DNA from: an uncultured candidatus Porisulfidus sp.
GTDB lineage: Bacteria > Pseudomonadota > Gammaproteobacteria > Poriferisulfidales > Poriferisulfidaceae
NCBI GenBank assembly: GCA_965204575.1
Contig: OZ241993.1
Span: 1,440,001 to 1,504,000 of the forward strand
Length of the DNA stretch: 64,000 bases
Direction of reading: 5' to 3'
Position numbers and translations under genes: made by a program. Positions within the stretch are counted from its first letter, which is position 1. Each line of letters starts with the position of its first letter. Positions 13,162 through 39,855 of this stretch are shown piece after piece. The notes below the pieces were generated by a model that made no database searches, had not been told where the DNA came from, and worked only from the letters and a program-made list of their open reading frames with translations.

Positions 13162-13258
13162 AGATACGCAAACCATCCGGCTCGGCGTGCGGAGCCTATA
13201 CCAAGAATTAGGAGGCTCTTCGAGGTTTCGTGTGGAATCCGTGCTAGAGTAAATCATC

Positions 13259-14665
13259 ATGCACCGAGCCTCCCGCTATCGTCTGTATCCGAACCAGACG
13301 CAGGAGCGGCAGTTCGCGCAGTTGTGCGGGGCCGGGCGGTTCGTCCACAACGAGTTGCTGGCCGACCAGATTCGGGAATACAAGCGTTTCGAGGCCGGCG
13401 AGAGAGACAGGCCGGGGGTTTCGCAGTTTGATTTTGGCCCTCGGTTCACGCGGCTGAGGGCGAAGGAAGGCAACGAGTGGTTGCGGGAACTGTCGTTTCC
13501 CATTGTCCGCAGTTCGGGCGCATTTCCCCTAGCGTCTGCATTCGCGCATTTCTCCCGGCGGATTCGGGAAGGCAAGTGCGGCAAGCAGGCCGGGTTTCCC
13601 CGTTTCAAGGTCAAGGGCGTCAGCCGGGAGTCGTTCACGATCCCATGCGACGTAAAGGTGAAGAAAAAGCGGTTTTGGGTGCCGAAGGTGGGTTGGATCC
13701 GGATGAACCGTAAGGCGCAGTCGCGCACGCGCGGGGCCGACCCCTGGGACGGCGGCGAGGCCAAGGTCGCGGTGGTGTACCGGGAGCTGGACAAGTGGTA
13801 CATATCGGTGTTGTGGGAGGTGGAAGACCCGGACTGGCGCTGGCACGGCGGGGTCTGCGGCATCGATCGCAACTCGGAGAACCTAGCGGGCGCTTGGTGC
13901 GGAGGGCGGAAGCTCATCGAGATTCCGTACGAGCGGATCGGGAAGTACGAGGCGCGGGCCCGGCACTACCAGTGGCGGGCGAGCCACCGGGAGCGGACCG
14001 AACTGAAGGATGCCGACGGGGTGCCAGTGCGAACGAAGTCCGGCCGACCGATCAAGGTGCCCTCGAACCGGCGCCGGCGGCTGCAGTTGCGCGCGGCGAA
14101 GGCGAAGCGCAAGGCGGCGGAGATCCGCAAGGACTTCAGCCATCAGTCCTCGGCGGACCTGGCGCGGAACTTCCAGCACATCGTGCTGGAGGATCTGGAC
14201 GTGCAGGCGATGCGGCGCTCGGCGCGGGGGGCGAAGGAAAAGCCCGGGAAAAACGTCAAGGCGAAGTCCGCGCTGAACCGGAAGATGGCGCAGTCCTCCT
14301 GCATGGGAATGGTGGATCGTTTTCTGAAGTACAAGGCAACGGACCTGATTCGGGTGCCGGCGCGGAACACCAGCCGGGCGTGCGCGGAATGCGGACACGT
14401 GGAGGCGGACAACCGAAAGGAGCAGGCGCACTTCAAGTGCCAGGCCTGCGGACACACGGACCATGCGGACATCAATGCCGCACGAAACATCCTGGACCTG
14501 GGATTGAACAGGCTCCTGACCGGAGGCGCTCCGGTGACGGGACGGGGAGGGGACAACGAAGCGGAGGCATTCTTCTATGAATGCCTAGTGGAGACCGCCG
14601 ATGATCCGTCAACGATGCAGTGGAACTACCGGGGCTCGCCCCCCGACTTCCACACAAAATCGTGA
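13259..14665 (+). CDS. tnpB: RNA-guided endonuclease TnpB family protein
   Basis: N-terminal YRLYPN..Q HTH, GFPRFK, RuvC-I GIDRN, RuvC-II VLEDL, zinc finger CAECG/CQACG, RuvC-III ADINAARNI. Confidence 0.95.
   Translation: MHRASRYRLYPNQTQERQFAQLCGAGRFVHNELLADQIREYKRFEAGERDRPGVSQFDFGPRFTRLRAKEGNEWLRELSFPIVRSSGAFPLASAFAHFSRRIREGKCGKQAGFPRFKVKGVSRESFTIPCDVKVKKKRFWVPKVGWIRMNRKAQSRTRGADPWDGGEAKVAVVYRELDKWYISVLWEVEDPDWRWHGGVCGIDRNSENLAGAWCGGRKLIEIPYERIGKYEARARHYQWRASHRERTELKDADGVPVRTKSGRPIKVPSNRRRRLQLRAAKAKRKAAEIRKDFSHQSSADLARNFQHIVLEDLDVQAMRRSARGAKEKPGKNVKAKSALNRKMAQSSCMGMVDRFLKYKATDLIRVPARNTSRACAECGHVEADNRKEQAHFKCQACGHTDHADINAARNILDLGLNRLLTGGAPVTGRGGDNEAEAFFYECLVETADDPSTMQWNYRGSPPDFHTKS
14516..14632 (+). 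ncRNA. Putative omegaRNA (scaffold 14516-14612 plus guide) overlapping the tnpB 3' end
   Basis: 97-nt block shared with 29571-29667 and 39682-39778; hairpins ACCGGAG/CTCCGGT and AGGCATTC/GAATGCCT; ends in TCAA; true 5' and 3' ends not determinable. Confidence 0.7.
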
Positions 14666-14787
14666 AGCGCCAATTAGGTATAATGCGTCGGCACCCAATT
14701 GGCTATAATGCGCCATCGAGATTTTAGGGATATTCGCGGGGAGCAGATGAGCAAAATATCCGTCTCAAACTTTCGACAAGGCTGGAA

Positions 14788-27876: not shown

Positions 27877-28234
27877 TGGTGGAGGTGGCGGGAATCGAAC
27901 CCGCGTCCGGCAGTTCCTCCTCTTCGGCCCTACATGCTTAGCACCGTCTTTTGTCTCGCGATCAACACCCGACGGACAGGGCCCGATGATCACCAGCCTG
28001 CATGTTGACTTTAACCTTTCGGCTCCAGACAGACCGAACGGCGATCTTGTGTAGTCGACATCCATATCGGGGTCCACAAGCATCTCCCGAAAGGATGACT
28101 AGCCGGGATTAAGCGGCTAGTGCGTAGTTGTCGTCGTTGGCAACTAATTTTTTCGCAACCGTTTTTTACGAGGTCGTTGCCGCCTCGGCATGCGCCTTGG
28201 ATTTAGTAACCGCCGTCGAAGCCAGGTCACCCCC
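27877..28234 (-). ncRNA. ssrA: tmRNA
   Basis: 5' GGGGGTG pairs with 3' CACCTCC-ACCA (G3-U); T-arm GGTTCGATTCC; tag reading frame ANDDNYALAA* at 28141-28109. Confidence 0.96.
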
Positions 28235-28313
28235 AAGTCATCTGGAACCATTATACGAGATAATAGGGGGGCTTCGAGGTTTTGTGTGGAAAGTCGTGAT
28301 AGAGTACACGATC

Positions 28314-29720
28314 ATGCACCGAGCCTCCCGCTACCGTCTGTATCCGAACCAGGCGCAGGAGCGGCAGTTCACGCGGCTGTGCGGAGCCGGGCGGTTCGTC
28401 TACAACGAACTGCTGGCCAACCAGATCCGGGAATACAAGCGTTTCGAGGCCGGCGAGAGGGAAAGACCGGGGGTTTCGCAGTTTGATTTTGGCCCTCGGT
28501 TCACGCGGCTGAGAACGAAGGAAGGCCACGAGTGGTTGCGGGAACTGTCGTTTCCCATTGCCCGCAGTTCGGGCGCGTTTCCCCTAGCATCTGCGTTCGC
28601 GCATTTCTCCCGGCGGATTCGGGAAGGCAAGTGCGGCAAACAGGCCGGATTCCCCCGTTTTAAGGTCAAGGGCGTCAGCCGGGAGTCATTTACGATCCCG
28701 TACAACGTGAAGGTGAAGAAAAAGCGGCTTTGGGTGCCGAAGGTCGGCTGGATTCGGATGAACCGCAAGGCGCAATCGCGCACGCGGGGGGCGGACCCCT
28801 GGGACGGCGGCGAGGCCAAGGTTGCGGTGGTGTACCGGGAACTGGACAAGTGGTACGTGTCGGTGCTGTGGGAGGTGGAAGATCCGGACTGGCGCTGGCA
28901 CGGTGGGGTCTGCGGGATTGACCGCAACTCGGAGAACATCGCGGGAGCCTGGAGCGGCGGGCGGAGGCTGATCGAGATTCCGTACAAGCGGATCGGGAAG
29001 TACGAGGCGCGGGCGCGGCACTACCAGTGGCGGGCGAGCCGCCGGGAACGAATCGAACTGAAGGACTCTGACGGGGAGCCGGTGCGCACGAAGTCTGGGC
29101 GGGTGGTCAAGATAGCCTCGAACCGGCGCCGACGGTTGCAGTTGCGCGCGGCGAAGGCGAAGCGCAAGGCGGCGGAAATCCGCAGGGACTTCAGCCATCA
29201 GGCCTCGGCGGACCTGGCTCGGAACTTCCAGCACATCGTGCTGGAGGACCTGGACGTGCAGGCGATGCGGCGCTCGGCGCGGGGGACGAGGGAGAAGCCC
29301 GGAAAAAACGTCAAGGCGAAGTCCGCGCTGAACCGGAAGATGGCGCAGTCCTCCTGCATGGGGATGGTGGACCGTTTCCTTCAGTACAAGGCAGCGGACC
29401 TGATCCGGGTGCCGGCGCGGAACACCAGCCGGGCGTGCGCGGAATGCGGGCACGTGGAGGCGGACAACCGGAAGGAGCAGGCGCACTTCAAGTGCCAAGC
29501 CTGCGGACACACGGACAATGCGGACATCAACGCCACACGAAACATCCTGGACCTGGGATTGAACAGGCTCCTGGCCGGAGGCGCTCCGGTGACGGGACGG
29601 GGAGGGGACAACGAAGCGGGGGCATTCTTCTATGAGTGTCTAGTGGACACCGCCGATGATCCGTCAACGATGCAGTGGAACTACCGGGGCTCGCCCCCTG
29701 ATTTCCACACAAATTCGTGA
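28314..29720 (+). CDS. tnpB: RNA-guided endonuclease TnpB family protein (copy 2)
   Basis: Same motifs as copy 1; about 37 aa differences over 468 by manual count; start at MHRASRY. Confidence 0.95.
   Translation: MHRASRYRLYPNQAQERQFTRLCGAGRFVYNELLANQIREYKRFEAGERERPGVSQFDFGPRFTRLRTKEGHEWLRELSFPIARSSGAFPLASAFAHFSRRIREGKCGKQAGFPRFKVKGVSRESFTIPYNVKVKKKRLWVPKVGWIRMNRKAQSRTRGADPWDGGEAKVAVVYRELDKWYVSVLWEVEDPDWRWHGGVCGIDRNSENIAGAWSGGRRLIEIPYKRIGKYEARARHYQWRASRRERIELKDSDGEPVRTKSGRVVKIASNRRRRLQLRAAKAKRKAAEIRRDFSHQASADLARNFQHIVLEDLDVQAMRRSARGTREKPGKNVKAKSALNRKMAQSSCMGMVDRFLQYKAADLIRVPARNTSRACAECGHVEADNRKEQAHFKCQACGHTDNADINATRNILDLGLNRLLAGGAPVTGRGGDNEAGAFFYECLVDTADDPSTMQWNYRGSPPDFHTNS
29571..29687 (+). 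ncRNA. Putative omegaRNA (scaffold 29571-29667 plus guide), copy 2
   Basis: Homologous to 14516-14612; stem changes become G-U pairs; ends TCAA followed by the same guide. Confidence 0.7.
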
Positions 29721-29786
29721 AGCGCCATAATAGGCATGGAGTTCGCCTGCCTATCCGTACGAACCGATCCTCCGGCCGTCATTTTC

Positions 29787-36761: not shown

Positions 36762-37707
36762 TCTCAACCGCCAGGTTGAACCCCTGGTTCGCTCTCTTTC
36801 CGATCAAGCGTGGAGCCTGCGCATCGTGGAATCTCCAACGGAAGAAGGGATATGGGTGGTGGATGCCGGTATCAATGCAATTGGCGGGATCGAGGCGGGG
36901 CGCCAAATCGCAGAAATTTGCATGGCGGGCCTGGGGCAGGCCACGCTGACTTATGGCGGATCGGGGGATTGGCCGCTGACCATACATGTTCACACGCAAC
37001 ACCCAGTCCTTGCCTGTCTGGCAAGCCAATACGCGGGATGGTCGCTGAGCGATGAGGAAAGCGGTTTTTACGCCTTGGGATCTGGCCCGGCCCGCAGCAT
37101 GGCACAGAAGGAGGATCTGTTCGAGAAGATCGGCTACAAGGATTCCTACATCTACACGGCGCTGGTGCTGGAGGTCGACAAGATTCCACCACGTGCAGTG
37201 CGCGAAAAAATCTGCCGGGACTGCGGAGTCGAACCGTTCAACCTGACTTTGATCCTGACGCCGACCACCAGTCTCGCAGGGACAGTGCAGGTGGTCGGCC
37301 GGGTTCTCGAGGTCGGGTTGCACAAGGCGCATGAATTGGGCTTCGACTTAAGTTGCGTGGTAGACGGCATTGGCAGCGCCCCGATCCCGCCACTCGACAA
37401 TTCCGACATGGTGAAGATGATGGGGCGCACGAACGATGCGATCCTGTTCGGCGGACAGATCAAACTGTTCGTCCAGTCCACAGACGAAGAAGCGGAAAGG
37501 CTCGCGACCGAGCTGCCGAGCAGCACGTCCCGCGATTACGGCAAACCATTCGCCAAAGTGTTCAAGGAACACGATCATGATTTCTTCCAGGTTGACCCGA
37601 TGTTATTCAGTCCAGCCCGGGTCTTAGTCAATAACATCCGGACCGGTCGCTCCTTCGCTGCTGGCGCGGTCAACCACGAATTGCTGGAGCAATCCTTTAG
37701 GGAATGA
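36745..37707 (+). CDS. mch: Methenyl-H4MPT cyclohydrolase
   Basis: ACLASQYAGW, LGSGPAR, SLAGTVQVVGR, MGRTNDAILFGG, DPMLFSPA. Confidence 0.94.
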   Translation: MKLPISLNRQVEPLVRSLSDQAWSLRIVESPTEEGIWVVDAGINAIGGIEAGRQIAEICMAGLGQATLTYGGSGDWPLTIHVHTQHPVLACLASQYAGWSLSDEESGFYALGSGPARSMAQKEDLFEKIGYKDSYIYTALVLEVDKIPPRAVREKICRDCGVEPFNLTLILTPTTSLAGTVQVVGRVLEVGLHKAHELGFDLSCVVDGIGSAPIPPLDNSDMVKMMGRTNDAILFGGQIKLFVQSTDEEAERLATELPSSTSRDYGKPFAKVFKEHDHDFFQVDPMLFSPARVLVNNIRTGRSFAAGAVNHELLEQSFRE

Positions 37708-38615
37708 TCGAGCACGGGCGCTACGCCATCGTGACCGATCAACCTGGCTGGCATGGTCACCAGCTCCGCCAGGCTTTGGAGGCGAAGGGCCTGGAAAGTG
37801 ATTTCGTCCGCTTGCAGGAATGCCGCCTGGAAGTACAAAACGGCGCACCGAAAATCGGAATCCCCGGCTTTGAAGACCAACTGCCGTCGGGAGTATTCAT
37901 CCGTGAAGTACCAGGGGGAAGCCTAGAAGAGGTCATCTTCTACCTGGATATCCTGCACGCCTTGGAAGCTTCGGGCGTCAAGGTCTACAACGACGCCGGC
38001 GCGATCGAACGCAGTGTGGACAAGGTCCGTGCAAGTTTCCTGTTTGCACTTCACAACGTTCCAACGCCTCGGACTTTCGCGGTACGGGATGTTCGGCAGA
38101 TGCGCGAGTTCCTGGACAATTGGTTCGAAACTCACCAGCACGTGGTGGCGAAACCCATCTTCGGCTCACAGGGCAAAGGGCTGAAGCGCCTGTCTCGGGA
38201 CGACCCGCATCCTGACTACGATCTGTCCCGTGGAATCTACTATTTGCAGGAATATATCGAGCCGGTCTCATCCCGCAGTTGTGACTGGCGAATTTTGGTG
38301 ATTGATGGTCAAGCCGTCGCGGCCATGCGAAGGGAGGGCGAGGACTGGATCAGCAATATCGCTAACGGAGGGCAGGGACACGCAGCTCCGCTAGAGCCAG
38401 AATTGGCTCAATTGGCAGAACGTGCAGTGACGGCAGTGGGAATGCCGTATGCAGGAGTGGACTTGATGCGCGATCGACAAGGAGTCGCTTGGGTCACCGA
38501 AGTCAACAGCATCCCGGCATGGCGGGGACTGCAGCAGGTCCATCCGGAAAACATTTCAGACCTTTTGATCGAAGGGTTCCTGAAGTGCTGCCACGGAGGA
38601 TCTACGCCTTCCTGA
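37704..38615 (+). CDS. RimK-family ATP-grasp glutamate ligase (Orf5-like)
   Basis: GGSLEEV, IERSVDK, KPIFGSQGKG, WISNIANG, EVNSIPAW. Confidence 0.85.
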   Translation: MIEHGRYAIVTDQPGWHGHQLRQALEAKGLESDFVRLQECRLEVQNGAPKIGIPGFEDQLPSGVFIREVPGGSLEEVIFYLDILHALEASGVKVYNDAGAIERSVDKVRASFLFALHNVPTPRTFAVRDVRQMREFLDNWFETHQHVVAKPIFGSQGKGLKRLSRDDPHPDYDLSRGIYYLQEYIEPVSSRSCDWRILVIDGQAVAAMRREGEDWISNIANGGQGHAAPLEPELAQLAERAVTAVGMPYAGVDLMRDRQGVAWVTEVNSIPAWRGLQQVHPENISDLLIEGFLKCCHGGSTPS

Positions 38616-38627
38616 ACAGGCATTCCG

Positions 38628-39563
38628 ATGGCCAAGCACCTGCGCGCCTATTACGATCCTCCTTGGCGTTTCACCTCGCGGCAATTCCTGTATGCCTGCC
38701 TGTTGGATCTGCAGGCGCTGAAACCGGGCAACGTCGGGCTGCATGGGGAAGGGCACGGGAAAACATGTCAGGACTTCCGACAGAGCGCTCAGGCGTCAGC
38801 CGAACTGATTACTCGACCGGACTGGAGTTTAGGCCGGCAGATACGCGAAGCAGCCCGGGCTAGCTGGGGCGTGGCGGGCTGCAATACCAATCTCGGAGTC
38901 CTGCTGCTGACAGCACCACTGGTTTCCGCTTATTACCGGGAGGGTCCTCCGGGCCTGGAGCAGCGCGTGGAGGCGGTCCTGGCGGAAACCACGGTCAATG
39001 ACGCGCGAGATGTATACCGAGCCATTCAACTGATGCAGCCGGCGGGTTTGGGGCGATCACCGCAAGCCGATATCCGCGAGCGGCCGAAGATCACCCTGCG
39101 GGAGGCCATGGCGCTGGCTGCCGAGCGAGACCAAGTCGCGGCACAGTACCGAGACGGGTTTCCGATCGTCTTTGCCGAAGCCCGGCCGCAGTGGGAATCG
39201 CTTTGCCTCCAGTGGGGTGATGCGCGGTGGGCGACGGCCGGCGTATTCCTGACTCTTCTCGGGCGCTATCCGGACTCTCACATTGCTCGCGTACACGGCG
39301 AAGAGGCTGCAAGGTCAGTTAGTGGTACGGTTAAAAAGTTAGCCGATGAATTTTGCGGGGCTGAAACTCCAGATACTCTTCGGCCCAGGCTCCTGGAACT
39401 GGATGCTTCTTGGAAGAGCACCGGTCTCAGCCCGGGAACCACGGCGGACTTGACCCTAGCGGGGGTTCTGGCCGCTCGGCTCGACGGGTGGAGTGACGAC
39501 AGGGACACGGAGGCCCTGTCACAGGGAGATGATTCCCGAAACCCATCGGGTGAGTCTGCGTGA
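38628..39563 (+). CDS. CitG-like triphosphoribosyl-dephospho-CoA synthase family (Orf7-like)
   Basis: KPGNV, NTNLG, DSHIAR, PGTTADL. Confidence 0.85.
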   Translation: MAKHLRAYYDPPWRFTSRQFLYACLLDLQALKPGNVGLHGEGHGKTCQDFRQSAQASAELITRPDWSLGRQIREAARASWGVAGCNTNLGVLLLTAPLVSAYYREGPPGLEQRVEAVLAETTVNDARDVYRAIQLMQPAGLGRSPQADIRERPKITLREAMALAAERDQVAAQYRDGFPIVFAEARPQWESLCLQWGDARWATAGVFLTLLGRYPDSHIARVHGEEAARSVSGTVKKLADEFCGAETPDTLRPRLLELDASWKSTGLSPGTTADLTLAGVLAARLDGWSDDRDTEALSQGDDSRNPSGESA

Positions 39564-39681
39564 TTTGACGGATTCGTTGTATGCAAACCGGCGTAAGGTT
39601 CCATTAAATCAAAGAGCAAAGCCAACCGGGTTTTGACTATGATATGATTTGGGCGTCCGTGAGTGGGGGACGGTACTCATT

Positions 39682-39798
39682 CTGACCGGAGGCGCTCCGG
39701 TGACAGGACGGGGAGGGGACAACGAAACGGGGCCTTTTCGGGTGAGAAGGCTAGTGGATACCGCCGATGATCCGTCAATTATGCTCTGATACCGGAAA
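39682..39798 (+). ncRNA. Stand-alone omegaRNA-like locus (scaffold 39682-39778, distinct guide from 39779)
   Basis: 97-nt homology to both tnpB 3' ends with no tnpB gene attached; covarying hairpin; upstream TGnTATGAT; downstream GAAA-loop hairpin. Confidence 0.72.
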
Positions 39799-39855
39799 CG
39801 GTATTTATTGTGTACTAAGCGCCCAAACAAAAACAAAAACTGGAGTAAATCAATA

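Follow-up and report, generated by a model that had tools for sequence, protein, structure and literature searches.

The tnpB genes of the window, by which we mean the whole 64,000-nt stretch analysed here (uncultured candidatus Porisulfidus sp., GCA_965204575.1, contig OZ241993.1, positions 1,440,001-1,504,000, forward strand), are probably the cargo of a non-autonomous ISL3-type transposon that carries tnpB together with its omegaRNA, holds a fixed guide slot inside the element and is moved in trans; we give this reading a probability of about 55%. The elements transpose as single units, their scaffold ends short of the right end, and the slot behind it is constant across copies. In the mechanism that we propose, a ~1.46-kb DDE-type element with ISL3-type ends would carry tnpB and omegaRNA as cargo, the ISL3 transposase from three identical IS copies would mobilise it in trans, and any RNA made from the scaffold would display the same element-internal sequence at the guide position.

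Anatomy and mobility of the tnpB elements

Both tnpB loci are non-autonomous elements of ~1.46 kb, bounded by inverted ends of 24 bp and flanked by target duplications of 8 bp. Their parts are arranged as follows.

13206..13213, no strand: left target-site duplication of element 1, 8 bp AATTAGGA; 7/8 identical to 14672-14679
13214..13237, + strand: TIR-L of element 1, ISL3-type; 5 mismatches in 24 against the reverse complement of TIR-R
13242..13250, + strand: conserved motif TGnTAGAGT, close to the inner edge of TIR-L and ~9 nt upstream of the ATG; seen by eye in left ends
13259..14665, + strand: open reading frame of tnpB (468 aa), with residues 6-412 covered by the family models
14516..14612, + strand: omegaRNA scaffold of element 1, 97 nt, ending GATCCGTCAA; placed by covariation
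14613..14630, + strand: guide slot, internal and constant; first 18 nt past the scaffold, doubling as 5' arm of the tail hairpin
14613..14663, + strand: nested tail hairpin; outer CGAT/ATCG, middle GTGGAA/TTCCAC, apical G+C stem 14631-14642
14648..14671, + strand: TIR-R of element 1; 22/24 identical to one end of the ISL3 IS
14672..14679, no strand: right target-site duplication of element 1, AATTAGGT
28260-28267 and 29727-29734: target duplication of element 2, perfect 8 bp ATAATAGG
28268..29726, + strand: element 2, 1459 bp, 92% identical to element 1
28268-28291, + strand: TIR-L of element 2
28314-29720, + strand: tnpB of element 2
29571-29667, + strand: scaffold of element 2
29668-29685, + strand: guide slot of element 2
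29703-29726, + strand: TIR-R of element 2

The right end of element 1 lies at 14671, since three lines of evidence converge on it: the flanking 8-bp repeat AATTAGG(A/T), the point at which homology stops among six genomic copies, and the empty site, where contigs from two other runs join 13205 to 14672 with seven shared letters and omit 1466 bp. The scaffold end, TCAA at 14612, is thus located 59 bp inside the element, exactly as the initial annotation had it. The guide slot accordingly belongs to the element itself and hardly varies. Six full copies are present in the 1.8-Mb genome, all of them with the 59-bp tail. Across 17 copies from this genome and eight genus-mates, the flanking 8-bp repeats match at seven or more of the eight positions in 12 cases, seven of which are perfect. 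The sequence past the scaffold belongs to the mobile unit in 6/6 own-genome copies and in 16/16 loci listed; hence, the slot is constant and not derived from the flank.

A resident IS of 1350 bp, represented by three identical copies elsewhere in the genome, is the likely source of the transposition machinery. Its transposase frame matches DDE_Tnp_ISL3 (7.9e-64) along with Zn_ribbon_ISL3 and HTH_Tnp_ISL3, and 8-bp duplications flank all three copies, as they do the tnpB elements. In the ISfinder classification, the ISL3 family makes 8-bp target duplications. Beside the close agreement of TIR-R, TIR-L of element 1 is identical to one end of this IS at 18/24 positions (letters counted by eye). 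The common ends suggest that the ISL3 transposase moves the tnpB elements in trans. The initial annotation had treated the elements as IS608/ISDra2-type, an assignment that the 24-bp inverted ends, the 8-bp duplications and the ends in common with an ISL3 IS contradict. The IS200/IS605 and IS607 families (ISDra2, IS608) do resemble the present elements in a TnpB with a D/E/D site and in a scaffold that overlaps the tnpB 3' end and terminates in 3' pairing and a TCAA-like sequence. However, as described in passages of PMC10705468 and PMC13565253, they have neither inverted ends nor target duplications, take a guide of ~16 nt from the flank and keep a TAM beside the left end; all four features differ here.

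The encoded protein is a TnpB by curated family models, with the NCBIfam model guided_TnpB reaching 181.3 bits (3.3e-53; cut-off 100). Two Pfam models score above their cut-offs (Cas12f1-like_TNB, 57.4 bits; HTH_OrfB_IS605, 45.7 bits), and OrfB_IS605, at 28.6 bits, falls just under its cut-off of 30.5. The motifs GIDRN (201), LEDLD (310) and ADINAARN (403) together with CxxC at 375 and 394 make up the RuvC D/E/D site and the zinc finger; an alignment with a solved TnpB relative matches the E and the final D, and the first D was placed by eye only. With these catalytic motifs present, and the gene intact in all six genomic copies, the RuvC site is not of the inactivated TldR kind.

Upstream of tnpB, TGnTAGAGT or the related TGnTAGTAT occurs in most of the left ends displayed and is absent in two lineage-B copies from genome G009. 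This motif may represent the extended -10 promoter of a leaderless tnpB. A consensus scan of element 1, which requires a -35, gave 0 promoters and 0 terminators.

The scaffold and its boundary

The window contains exactly three copies of GATCCGTCAA, with their last letters at 14612, 29667 and 39778 (expected 0.25; three or more in 1 of 100 shuffles). Directly behind it, the two tnpB elements have the same 31-mer (14613-14643 and 29668-29698, 0 mismatches), which has no further site in the window at up to 3 mismatches and reached two matches in 0 of 100 shuffles. A three-way alignment is near-identical from 14516, 29571 and 39682 through TCAA, past which the third copy departs. The three-way homology block and the identical continuation in both tnpB elements, as described in the initial annotation, are hereby confirmed, with the start of the third copy moved from 39684 to 39682.

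Covariation also supports this boundary. The scaffold forms 23 pairs, and 96.4% of the cells are paired, compared with 83.7% in shuffles (0 of 500 as high) and 33-44% in slid controls; compensatory changes appear in 11 of the 23 pairs. Its terminal helix closes 2 nt before the scaffold end, undergoes a GC-to-AU switch in a second TnpB family, F2, and is 100% paired over 17 sequences from three TnpB families as well as in tnpB-less copies. In three independent tnpB-less copies, homology to the scaffold of the family studied here (family A) stops at TCAA or at the following C. Termination at GTCAA, proposed earlier from the homology block, agrees with this pairing. The elements therefore carry what an omegaRNA calls for, a conserved structured scaffold at the tnpB 3' end, and TnpB presumably loads RNA from this predicted scaffold. 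Rfam at gathering score contains no family for it; only tmRNA was matched.

The same architecture, with the slot inside the element, recurs in families F2 and F3. The ends of F3 are IS1595-type, and three other genomes contain its partner transposase. The scaffold end, placed by covariation, lies 45-60 bp inside the element end. Hence the internal scaffold boundary holds in three TnpB families on two unrelated DDE families, ISL3-type and IS1595-type.

The guide slot

Over 17 copies, diversity amounts to 0.096 in the guide slot, 0.071 in the scaffold and 0.261 at third codon positions. In sequence, the slot repeats the inverted end of the element in direct orientation, though with divergence: several substitutions and a gap of 3-4 nt set it apart from the inverted ends as they are today, which it consequently cannot target. 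Its conservation could stem from the open reading frame or from pairing with the right inverted end, and we treat the fixed segment as a candidate guide.

The DNA abutting the left end is a variable AT-rich 8-bp target duplication with no common TAM, so that no fixed TAM is available there. With a guide slot that does not draw on the flank, and in the absence of a fixed TAM at the left end, restorative homing at the donor site, the mode of IS200/IS605 and IS607, cannot operate. The earlier proposal that an element cannot target its own empty donor site holds for the same two reasons. The accompanying notion of a hard-wired guide survives in part: the slot is internal and nearly invariant across copies, while the IS608/ISDra2 framework and the helper IS as target, discussed below, do not stand.

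Elements with a scaffold and no tnpB

The third copy of the homology block resides in a much shorter element.

39589..39823, + strand: 235-bp MITE-like element without tnpB; scaffold 39682-39778, 5-bp duplication CAAAC
39779-39823, + strand: tail of the 235-bp element; fixed, different from the tnpB-element tail, ending AAGCGCC
39788..39805, + strand: terminator-like hairpin in this tail, beginning 10 nt past the scaffold; 1 site against a shuffle mean of 0.6

Its two flanks are adjacent in nine genus-mates, which identifies the 235-bp element as an insertion. Copies at other loci in three other genomes retain the same tail, and a fourth copy of this kind, in genome G007, is ~83% alike and has a different tail.

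A family of IS1595-type MITEs outside the window adds a further case. One 'empty' copy has the order A+P+B, and four 'filled' copies in three genomes have the order A+P+X+P'+B. The cassette in the filled copies, ~125 nt long, consists of a -10-like box and a scaffold ending GTCAA and is enclosed by 21-22-nt direct repeats, the second of which falls precisely on the guide slot. Lineage-specific changes are common to P and P', and every P differs from every same-genome guide within the first 12 nt. TnpB cuts ~21 nt from the TAM.

Searches for a target

In the own genome, the slot 17-mer at up to 4 mismatches retrieved only the six elements, one tail fragment and scattered matches with 3-4 mismatches. 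The fragment, at genome position 1563883, is 39 bp long with 2 mismatches, has no scaffold and is cut on both sides. At up to 1 mismatch, the own genome and 40 relatives contain 30 matching places, 25 of them in elements, and no target; the remaining five are three truncated or degenerate right ends and two coding look-alikes. The exact 17-mer occurs in at least 117 stretches of genome_contigs, and among the matches listed there was no target: two belong to elements of relatives, and the rest are unrelated, mostly one conserved coding motif. In viral_contigs, the family-A slot has nine matches, seven of them in one phage gene family, which we did not take as a target. The slots of the 235-bp element and of the MITE family outside the window both gave 0 matches in that collection, and the six matches of the F2 slot, in AT-rich phage contigs and falling into two sequence groups, were judged to be chance.

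The initial annotation had suggested that copies of the slot not preceded by the scaffold might reveal a 5' motif as candidate TAM. Among 23 matches in metagenome_contigs to the 18-mer not preceded by A, G+C content varies, none reaches the tail and a common 5' motif is absent. Its suggestion of another mobile element as target likewise found no counterpart in the genome, in its 40 relatives or in the collections of viral, genome and metagenome contigs (for genome_contigs, among the matches listed).

Alternative explanations for the tail

The tail can also be explained otherwise, by a reading that we regard as possible though rather improbable. Here, the 35 nt after GTCAA would not be a guide at all; they would be kept because they code for the TnpB C-terminus and, together with the right inverted end, give the DDE transposase a hairpin or a second site to bind, or because they serve as a terminator or stabiliser at the 3' end, and tnpB-omegaRNA would be an idle or decaying passenger without a DNA target. 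The tnpB frame continues across scaffold and tail to a TGA inside TIR-R and is open in 17/17 copies (465-468 aa), family-A tails measure 59, 56 or 53 nt, and within the tail variation is higher at third codon positions (0.233) than at first and second positions (0.089 and 0.120); these features point at coding. A structural role is suggested by the nested fold, predicted in 19/19 distinct tails, whose apical stem varies with compensatory changes and whose middle stem has its 3' arm within TIR-R; in element 1 the fold energy is -17.9, compared with -13.2 +/- 2.8 for its shuffles. The searches that we ran, which yielded no target, also fit an idle passenger. Yet the protein sequence of the tail, judged by eye, is not conserved between families, and tnpB has remained intact, catalytic motifs included, in six copies. 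Strong structural selection on the scaffold is equally at odds with decay. Furthermore, a useless RNA would hardly account for the tnpB-less elements, which are mobile and have kept a scaffold, promoter-like sequence and a fixed tail.

Alternatively, in a Fanzor-like arrangement, the hairpin might be an extra scaffold domain. The omegaRNA would then reach the end of the inverted repeat, and the guide would be the flank (duplication plus neighbour), changing at each insertion. The geometry is compatible with this, as the hairpin closes flush at +1 to +4 and ~+51 with just 8-9 nt of the inverted end left over, and the Fanzor scaffold does reach the 3' duplication in the account of PMC13565253. 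The RNA data come from one RNA library (0.04 share of words) and are assembled contigs only, incapable of giving ends, strand or level; one such contig covers 14498-14672, that is scaffold and inverted end, plus 15 nt of a flank, and is compatible with a longer RNA. We nevertheless consider this explanation unlikely. GTCAA is where the conserved closing helix stops, both in the tnpB-less copies and in all three families, and it is with 3' pairing of this type that prokaryotic scaffolds end in the relevant passages of PMC13565253. Moreover, every guide would have its seed filled by the terminal 8-9 nt of the inverted end, which empty sites lack, and the left neighbour is the variable duplication that offers no common TAM.

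That the fixed guide is aimed at the autonomous IS, for homing or suppression, as the initial annotation had envisaged, is contradicted for this genome and highly improbable: the slot does show kinship with the inverted-end sequence that IS and elements have in common (CGAT...GTGGAA), but its 18-mer, compared without gaps on both strands with the 1350-bp ISL3 IS and 10 bp of flank on each side, has 6 mismatches at best (5 for the first 16), none of its genome matches at up to 4 mismatches lies in an ISL3 copy, and in family F3 the slot copies an inner end sequence that is element-specific and that the IS1595 helper lacks. Matches are poorer still in the left ends of the six elements (9-10 mismatches at best) and in a 37-bp end-to-end remnant (8).

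Proposed origin of the fixed guide and relation to known systems

Within the preferred reading of a trans-mobilised ISL3-type carrier with an internal slot, our best guess is that the fixed guide was first aimed at the matching end sequence of cassette-free sibling elements. The matching sibling or other target would no longer be in the genome, and the tnpB elements would now spread solely via the ISL3 transposase. A broader version, which we hold to be doubtful, is that hard-wired guides copy a sequence of their own carrier transposon family, that cassettes spread by cutting cassette-free siblings and being copied in, thereby homing into a repeat family instead of an empty donor site, and that the tnpB-less elements are mobile guide-RNA genes acting in trans. 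The best hint at such repeat-family homing is provided by the empty and filled IS1595-type MITEs.

The closest known systems are the DDE-transposase-associated TnpBs of Altae-Tran et al. 2023 (PNAS, PMC10691335), who describe the branches DDE-1 to DDE-6 as well as solo TnpBs that have such ends in common with them. According to the passages concerned, tnpB lies between inverted terminal repeats with its 3' end within 250 bp of the transposon end, and transposase-less copies share their ends with transposase-bearing elements, for which mobilisation in trans is thought likely; in all of this, the present elements are the same. Guides are assumed there to be obtained as usual, whereas here the slot is internal and the scaffold end 45-60 bp inside. 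These passages name IS630, not ISL3 or IS1595, and the portion of a 2026 review (PMC13565253) that lists families gives ISL2, IS630 and IS1031.

TldRs, nuclease-dead repressors resembling TnpB and equipped with a single fixed guide RNA, are a further comparison. As covered in part of PMC10705468, each locus has one hard-wired guide, predicted from the conserved scaffold 3' end, as is the candidate guide here. Those proteins, however, have a decayed RuvC site, no transposon ends and identified promoter targets, and are immobile except on phage carriers. Unlike them, the tnpB elements here have catalytic motifs, belong to an active multi-copy transposon unit and yielded no target. Fanzor in eukaryotic DDE transposons likewise combines a TnpB-family nuclease with inverted ends and target duplications, as outlined in sections of PMC13565253; its scaffold extends through the 3' duplication with the guide beyond, while the scaffold here stops well inside the element. 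A passage of PMC10705468 states that sequence past the transposon right end 'invariably' forms the TnpB guide, and in the preprint 10.1101/2025.08.27.672191 the term 'fixed guide' contrasts a single guide with a CRISPR array. Literature searches combining TnpB with ISL3 gave nothing relevant by title and abstract, those on omegaRNA, MITE and TnpB found none, and those on TnpB, DDE transposase, guide and passenger gave nothing relevant.

The retention of TnpB by transposons is currently explained by restorative homing at the donor site. With the scaffold boundary well inside the element, this canonical benefit cannot apply. The tnpB genes are nonetheless intact and the scaffold is under selection, and what TnpB offers to a DDE transposon becomes a testable question. 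Fixed, short candidate guides lend themselves to the direct design of cleavage, binding and TAM assays. The mobile elements carrying only a guide RNA would, if functional, represent a new kind of small mobile element.

Scaffold End and Conserved Tail

Within the window, the sequence GATCCGTCAA occurs three times, ending at 14612, 29667 and 39778 (expected 0.25; at least three occurrences in 1 of 100 shuffles). The sequences leading to these sites are near-perfectly alignable from 14516, 29571 and 39682 up to TCAA. Beyond TCAA the third copy diverges, and the two tnpB elements continue with the same 31-mer (14613 and 29668), which has no other match at three or fewer mismatches. The initial annotation had described both this block and the identical sequence behind it, and both are borne out. 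The features concerned are as follows.

13214-14671, strand +: element 1, tnpB, omegaRNA scaffold and 24-bp inverted ends
14613-14630: guide slot of element 1, the first 18 nt after the scaffold end GTCAA
28268-29726, strand +: element 2, organized as element 1
39589-39823: 235-bp element without tnpB, containing the scaffold block 39682-39778

The genome, a single contig of 1,816,663 bp with 60% G+C, harbors six full-length copies of the tnpB element (81-100% identical across about 1.45 kb), along with three scaffold-only copies, one left-end fragment and one tail fragment. In all six full copies, 59 bp are kept past TCAA, and the homology ends in ...GAAGCGCC. The scaffold end hence lies 59 bp inside the right end, as initially annotated.

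The tnpB Elements as ISL3-Type Transposons

The element ends are 24-bp inverted repeats. For 17 copies (6 from this genome and 11 from eight genus-mates), the 8-bp flanks agree at seven or more positions in 12 cases, seven of them perfect, at six in two cases and at none or one in three. Element 1 moves as a unit: contigs of two other sequencing runs join 13205 straight to 14672, skipping 1466 bp, with 7 letters common across the joint; this is the empty site of element 1. A resident IS of 1350 bp, of which the genome has three identical copies, shares the inverted ends (22/24 at the right one) and also makes 8-bp duplications; its 433-aa product matches DDE_Tnp_ISL3 (7.9e-64), Zn_ribbon_ISL3 and HTH_Tnp_ISL3. 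Because ends and duplications are common to this ISL3-transposase IS, the tnpB loci are, judged by sequence, non-autonomous ISL3-type elements. Their proposed relation to IS608/ISDra2 could not be upheld, as inverted ends and duplications of this type rule out both an IS200/IS605 and an IS607 identity.

The cargo protein is a TnpB with the motifs GIDRN, LEDLD and ADINAARN and two CxxC pairs. By eye, most copies display TGnTAGAGT inside the left end, a few nucleotides 5' of the ATG, which we read as a putative extended -10 box of a leaderless mRNA. A consensus scan that needs a -35 found no promoter in element 1.

Several further arrangements were seen. A contig of one other run loops back 157 from 14672 to 14516, so that scaffold and tail are repeated in tandem from exactly the point where homology to the tnpB-less copy starts. 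In a 37-bp remnant outside the window (L023, genome 624981-625017), the left inverted end breaks off after ~18 nt and runs directly into the final ~21 nt of the right one. Two origins are conceivable for this remnant of the ISL3-type family: a scar left by excision or deletion, or a minimal palindromic derivative. A 39-bp island (L017, genome 1563883-1563921), also outside the window, carries the tail from the second base of the slot through the apical stem and on into the inverted end, of which it retains the first 6 nt; no scaffold precedes it, unrelated DNA lies on both sides, and its left edge is 1 nt off the scaffold/slot boundary. Element 2, with its left duplication and left inverted end at 28260-28291, sits 33 bp upstream of where the tmRNA gene starts (27877-28234, minus strand; Rfam RF00023, 228 bits). 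The gap retains a TATAAT box by eye, and since the -35 position is now occupied by the left end of the element, the promoter of ssrA may have been modified by the insertion.

Structure and Constraint of the Guide Slot

In family A, the TnpB family of elements 1 and 2, the tail consists of the 18-nt guide slot, a short G+C-rich stem-loop and the inverted end. A nested hairpin is predicted in 19 of 19 distinct tails of family A and a second TnpB lineage, B, in which the slot forms the 5' arm and the inward portion of the right inverted end is its pairing partner (GTGGAA/TTCCAC). Most tails are also predicted to form an outer stem of 3-4 bp, L027 and L043 being the exceptions, and the apical stem varies with compensation. 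Single-sequence fold energies are just 1-3 sd below shuffles; the argument for the predicted hairpin is the recurrence of the fold, not its energy. Since left and right ends are inverted repeats of each other, the slot also represents a diverged direct copy of left-end sequence, which begins about 9 nt in and contains substitutions and a 3-4-nt gap.

Diversity by region across 17 copies
Scaffold: 0.071
Guide slot: 0.096
Apical stem: 0.172
Right inverted end: 0.182
Third codon positions of tnpB: 0.261
Flank: 0.738

The low diversity of the slot relative to third codon positions indicates constraint at the sequence level. Besides guide use, two causes compete to explain it. The slot may be held by coding, as the tnpB frame runs through it uninterrupted in all 17 copies, family-A tails measure 59, 56 or 53 nt, and third positions vary more. 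Alternatively, it may be held by the required pairing with the right end.

The Scaffold 3' End

We aligned the 110 nt upstream of TCAA for 17 sequences from family A, lineage B (59-61% identical to family A), family F2 (41-44%) and three tnpB-less copies. The consensus fold has 23 pairs, with pairing in 96.4% of cells; shuffles give 83.7% (0/500 as high), and sliding the partners by 1-3 columns gives 33-44%. Because the aligned sequences are related, the comparison with shuffles overstates significance; stronger support comes from the slid controls and the cross-family compensations, with both-sided changes at 11 of the 23 pairs. The helix between GACGGG and the last bases ahead of the final AA is paired in 100% of cells, and changes from GC to AU in the four F2 sequences. 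The tnpB-less copies represent two different small elements, whose likeness to the family-A scaffold stops at TCAA or the next C. On these comparisons, GTCAA is taken as the scaffold 3' end, in agreement with the 3' pairing with an upstream part in which prokaryotic scaffolds terminate according to section 6.2 of a 2026 review (PMC13565253).

A Guide-RNA-Only Element

The third scaffold block lies in a 235-bp insertion with a 5-bp duplication, which is absent from the syntenic site in nine genus-mates. Copies with the same fixed tail occupy other loci in three other genomes, and a fourth copy, in G007, is more divergent and carries another tail. The insertion has no tnpB. By eye, upstream sequence resembles a promoter, and a hairpin like that of a terminator follows 10 nt past the scaffold. 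It is a small mobile element with a guide-RNA gene as its sole cargo. It is situated downstream of genes at 37700-39560, presumably of the tetrahydromethanopterin pathway, and about 30 bp upstream of an ORF (39857 onward) that we take to resemble formaldehyde-activating enzyme; the insertion may affect expression of this downstream gene.

Relation to Known Systems

The carrier context is known in kind, since Altae-Tran et al. 2023 (PMC10691335) describe TnpB in DDE transposons, inverted ends and trans-mobilised solo copies. There, and in the TldR preprint (PMC10705468), the guide is taken as coming from beyond the right end, whereas here the scaffold end is internal and the slot fixed and end-derived. 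No description of such a scaffold end, such a slot or guide-RNA-only elements was found in the literature searched, including the available text of these two sources; the end and branch lists of the 2023 paper may bear on the point.

Possible Targets of the Putative Fixed Guide

With a guide that is not flank-derived and a variable duplication to the left of the element, donor-site homing cannot work here, as initially proposed. That every copy makes the same guide holds as to the internal slot and the retained tail; loading of the RNA by TnpB, the sequence recognised and the guide function of the slot are inferred. The original observation is confirmed and its interpretation partly supported.

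No target was found in the genome itself, in 40 relatives or, by exact match, in the public viral and metagenome collections and among the matches listed for the genome collection. The helper IS, suggested earlier as a target, offers at best 6 mismatches in 18. A missing self-target is expected if the nuclease is active. Absence from the collections is weak evidence, given exact-match searches and a genome scan limited to the matches listed.

We favor a reading in which the fixed guide would originally have been aimed at the matching sequence in cassette-free sibling elements. A concrete example may be an IS1595-type MITE family outside the window (termini GGGAAC...ATCCC), in which one copy is empty and four, spread over three genomes, are filled.

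Copies of the IS1595-type MITE, filled and empty
L016:1410-1706
L013:1411-1716
L022:170-330 (minus strand)
G012:C4:15382-15660
G007:C30:11395-11670

Filled copies hold a promoter-plus-scaffold cassette between 21-22-nt direct repeats, the second of which occupies the guide slot. Perfect 8-bp duplications flank the empty copy and two of the filled ones, and none is seen at the two filled copies of this genome. Repeat and guide have lineage-specific changes in common, and differ by at least one base within the first 12 nt. The repeat, which contains TTGACA, might also be an autoregulatory self-match, or the trace of a deletion between repeats.

The Same Design in Other Families

All TnpB families of the genome (16 genes by tblastn) reside in elements with inverted ends. 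The three F2 copies, outside the window (genome 226531-227949, 266612-268030 and about 362184-363560), have the scaffold end GATCTGTCAA followed by about 43 internal bases, including an arm that pairs with an inverted end different from that of family A; 8-bp duplications are visible in two. Family F3, 31-34% identical to family A, has seven copies here and others in four other genera. Its scaffold end GCGTCAA precedes 40-55 internal bases and ends of the type GGGAATTATATAC, with 8-bp duplications by eye in 5 of the 10 other-genera copies shown. What the F3 arm copies is the element-specific inner stretch of the end; the stretch shared with the helper is not copied. F3-type ends accompany IS1595-family transposases in three other genomes, one tested by Pfam (DDE_Tnp_IS1595, 8e-45) and two homologous-looking by eye. 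Two of these three elements, from two other genera (L208:319-1626, minus strand, and L209:1284-2489), carry a passenger, an N6/N4 DNA methylase-HNH nuclease fusion, tested by Pfam for the former and called by likeness for the latter. An end-motif scan and tblastn with the ISL3 transposase found no autonomous partner for F2 or F3 ends in this genome.

That one arrangement recurs with two DDE families unrelated to each other speaks against flanking DNA captured on a single occasion and then frozen. It suggests that the arrangement is either produced by the route through which the cassette enters such elements, or required by them.
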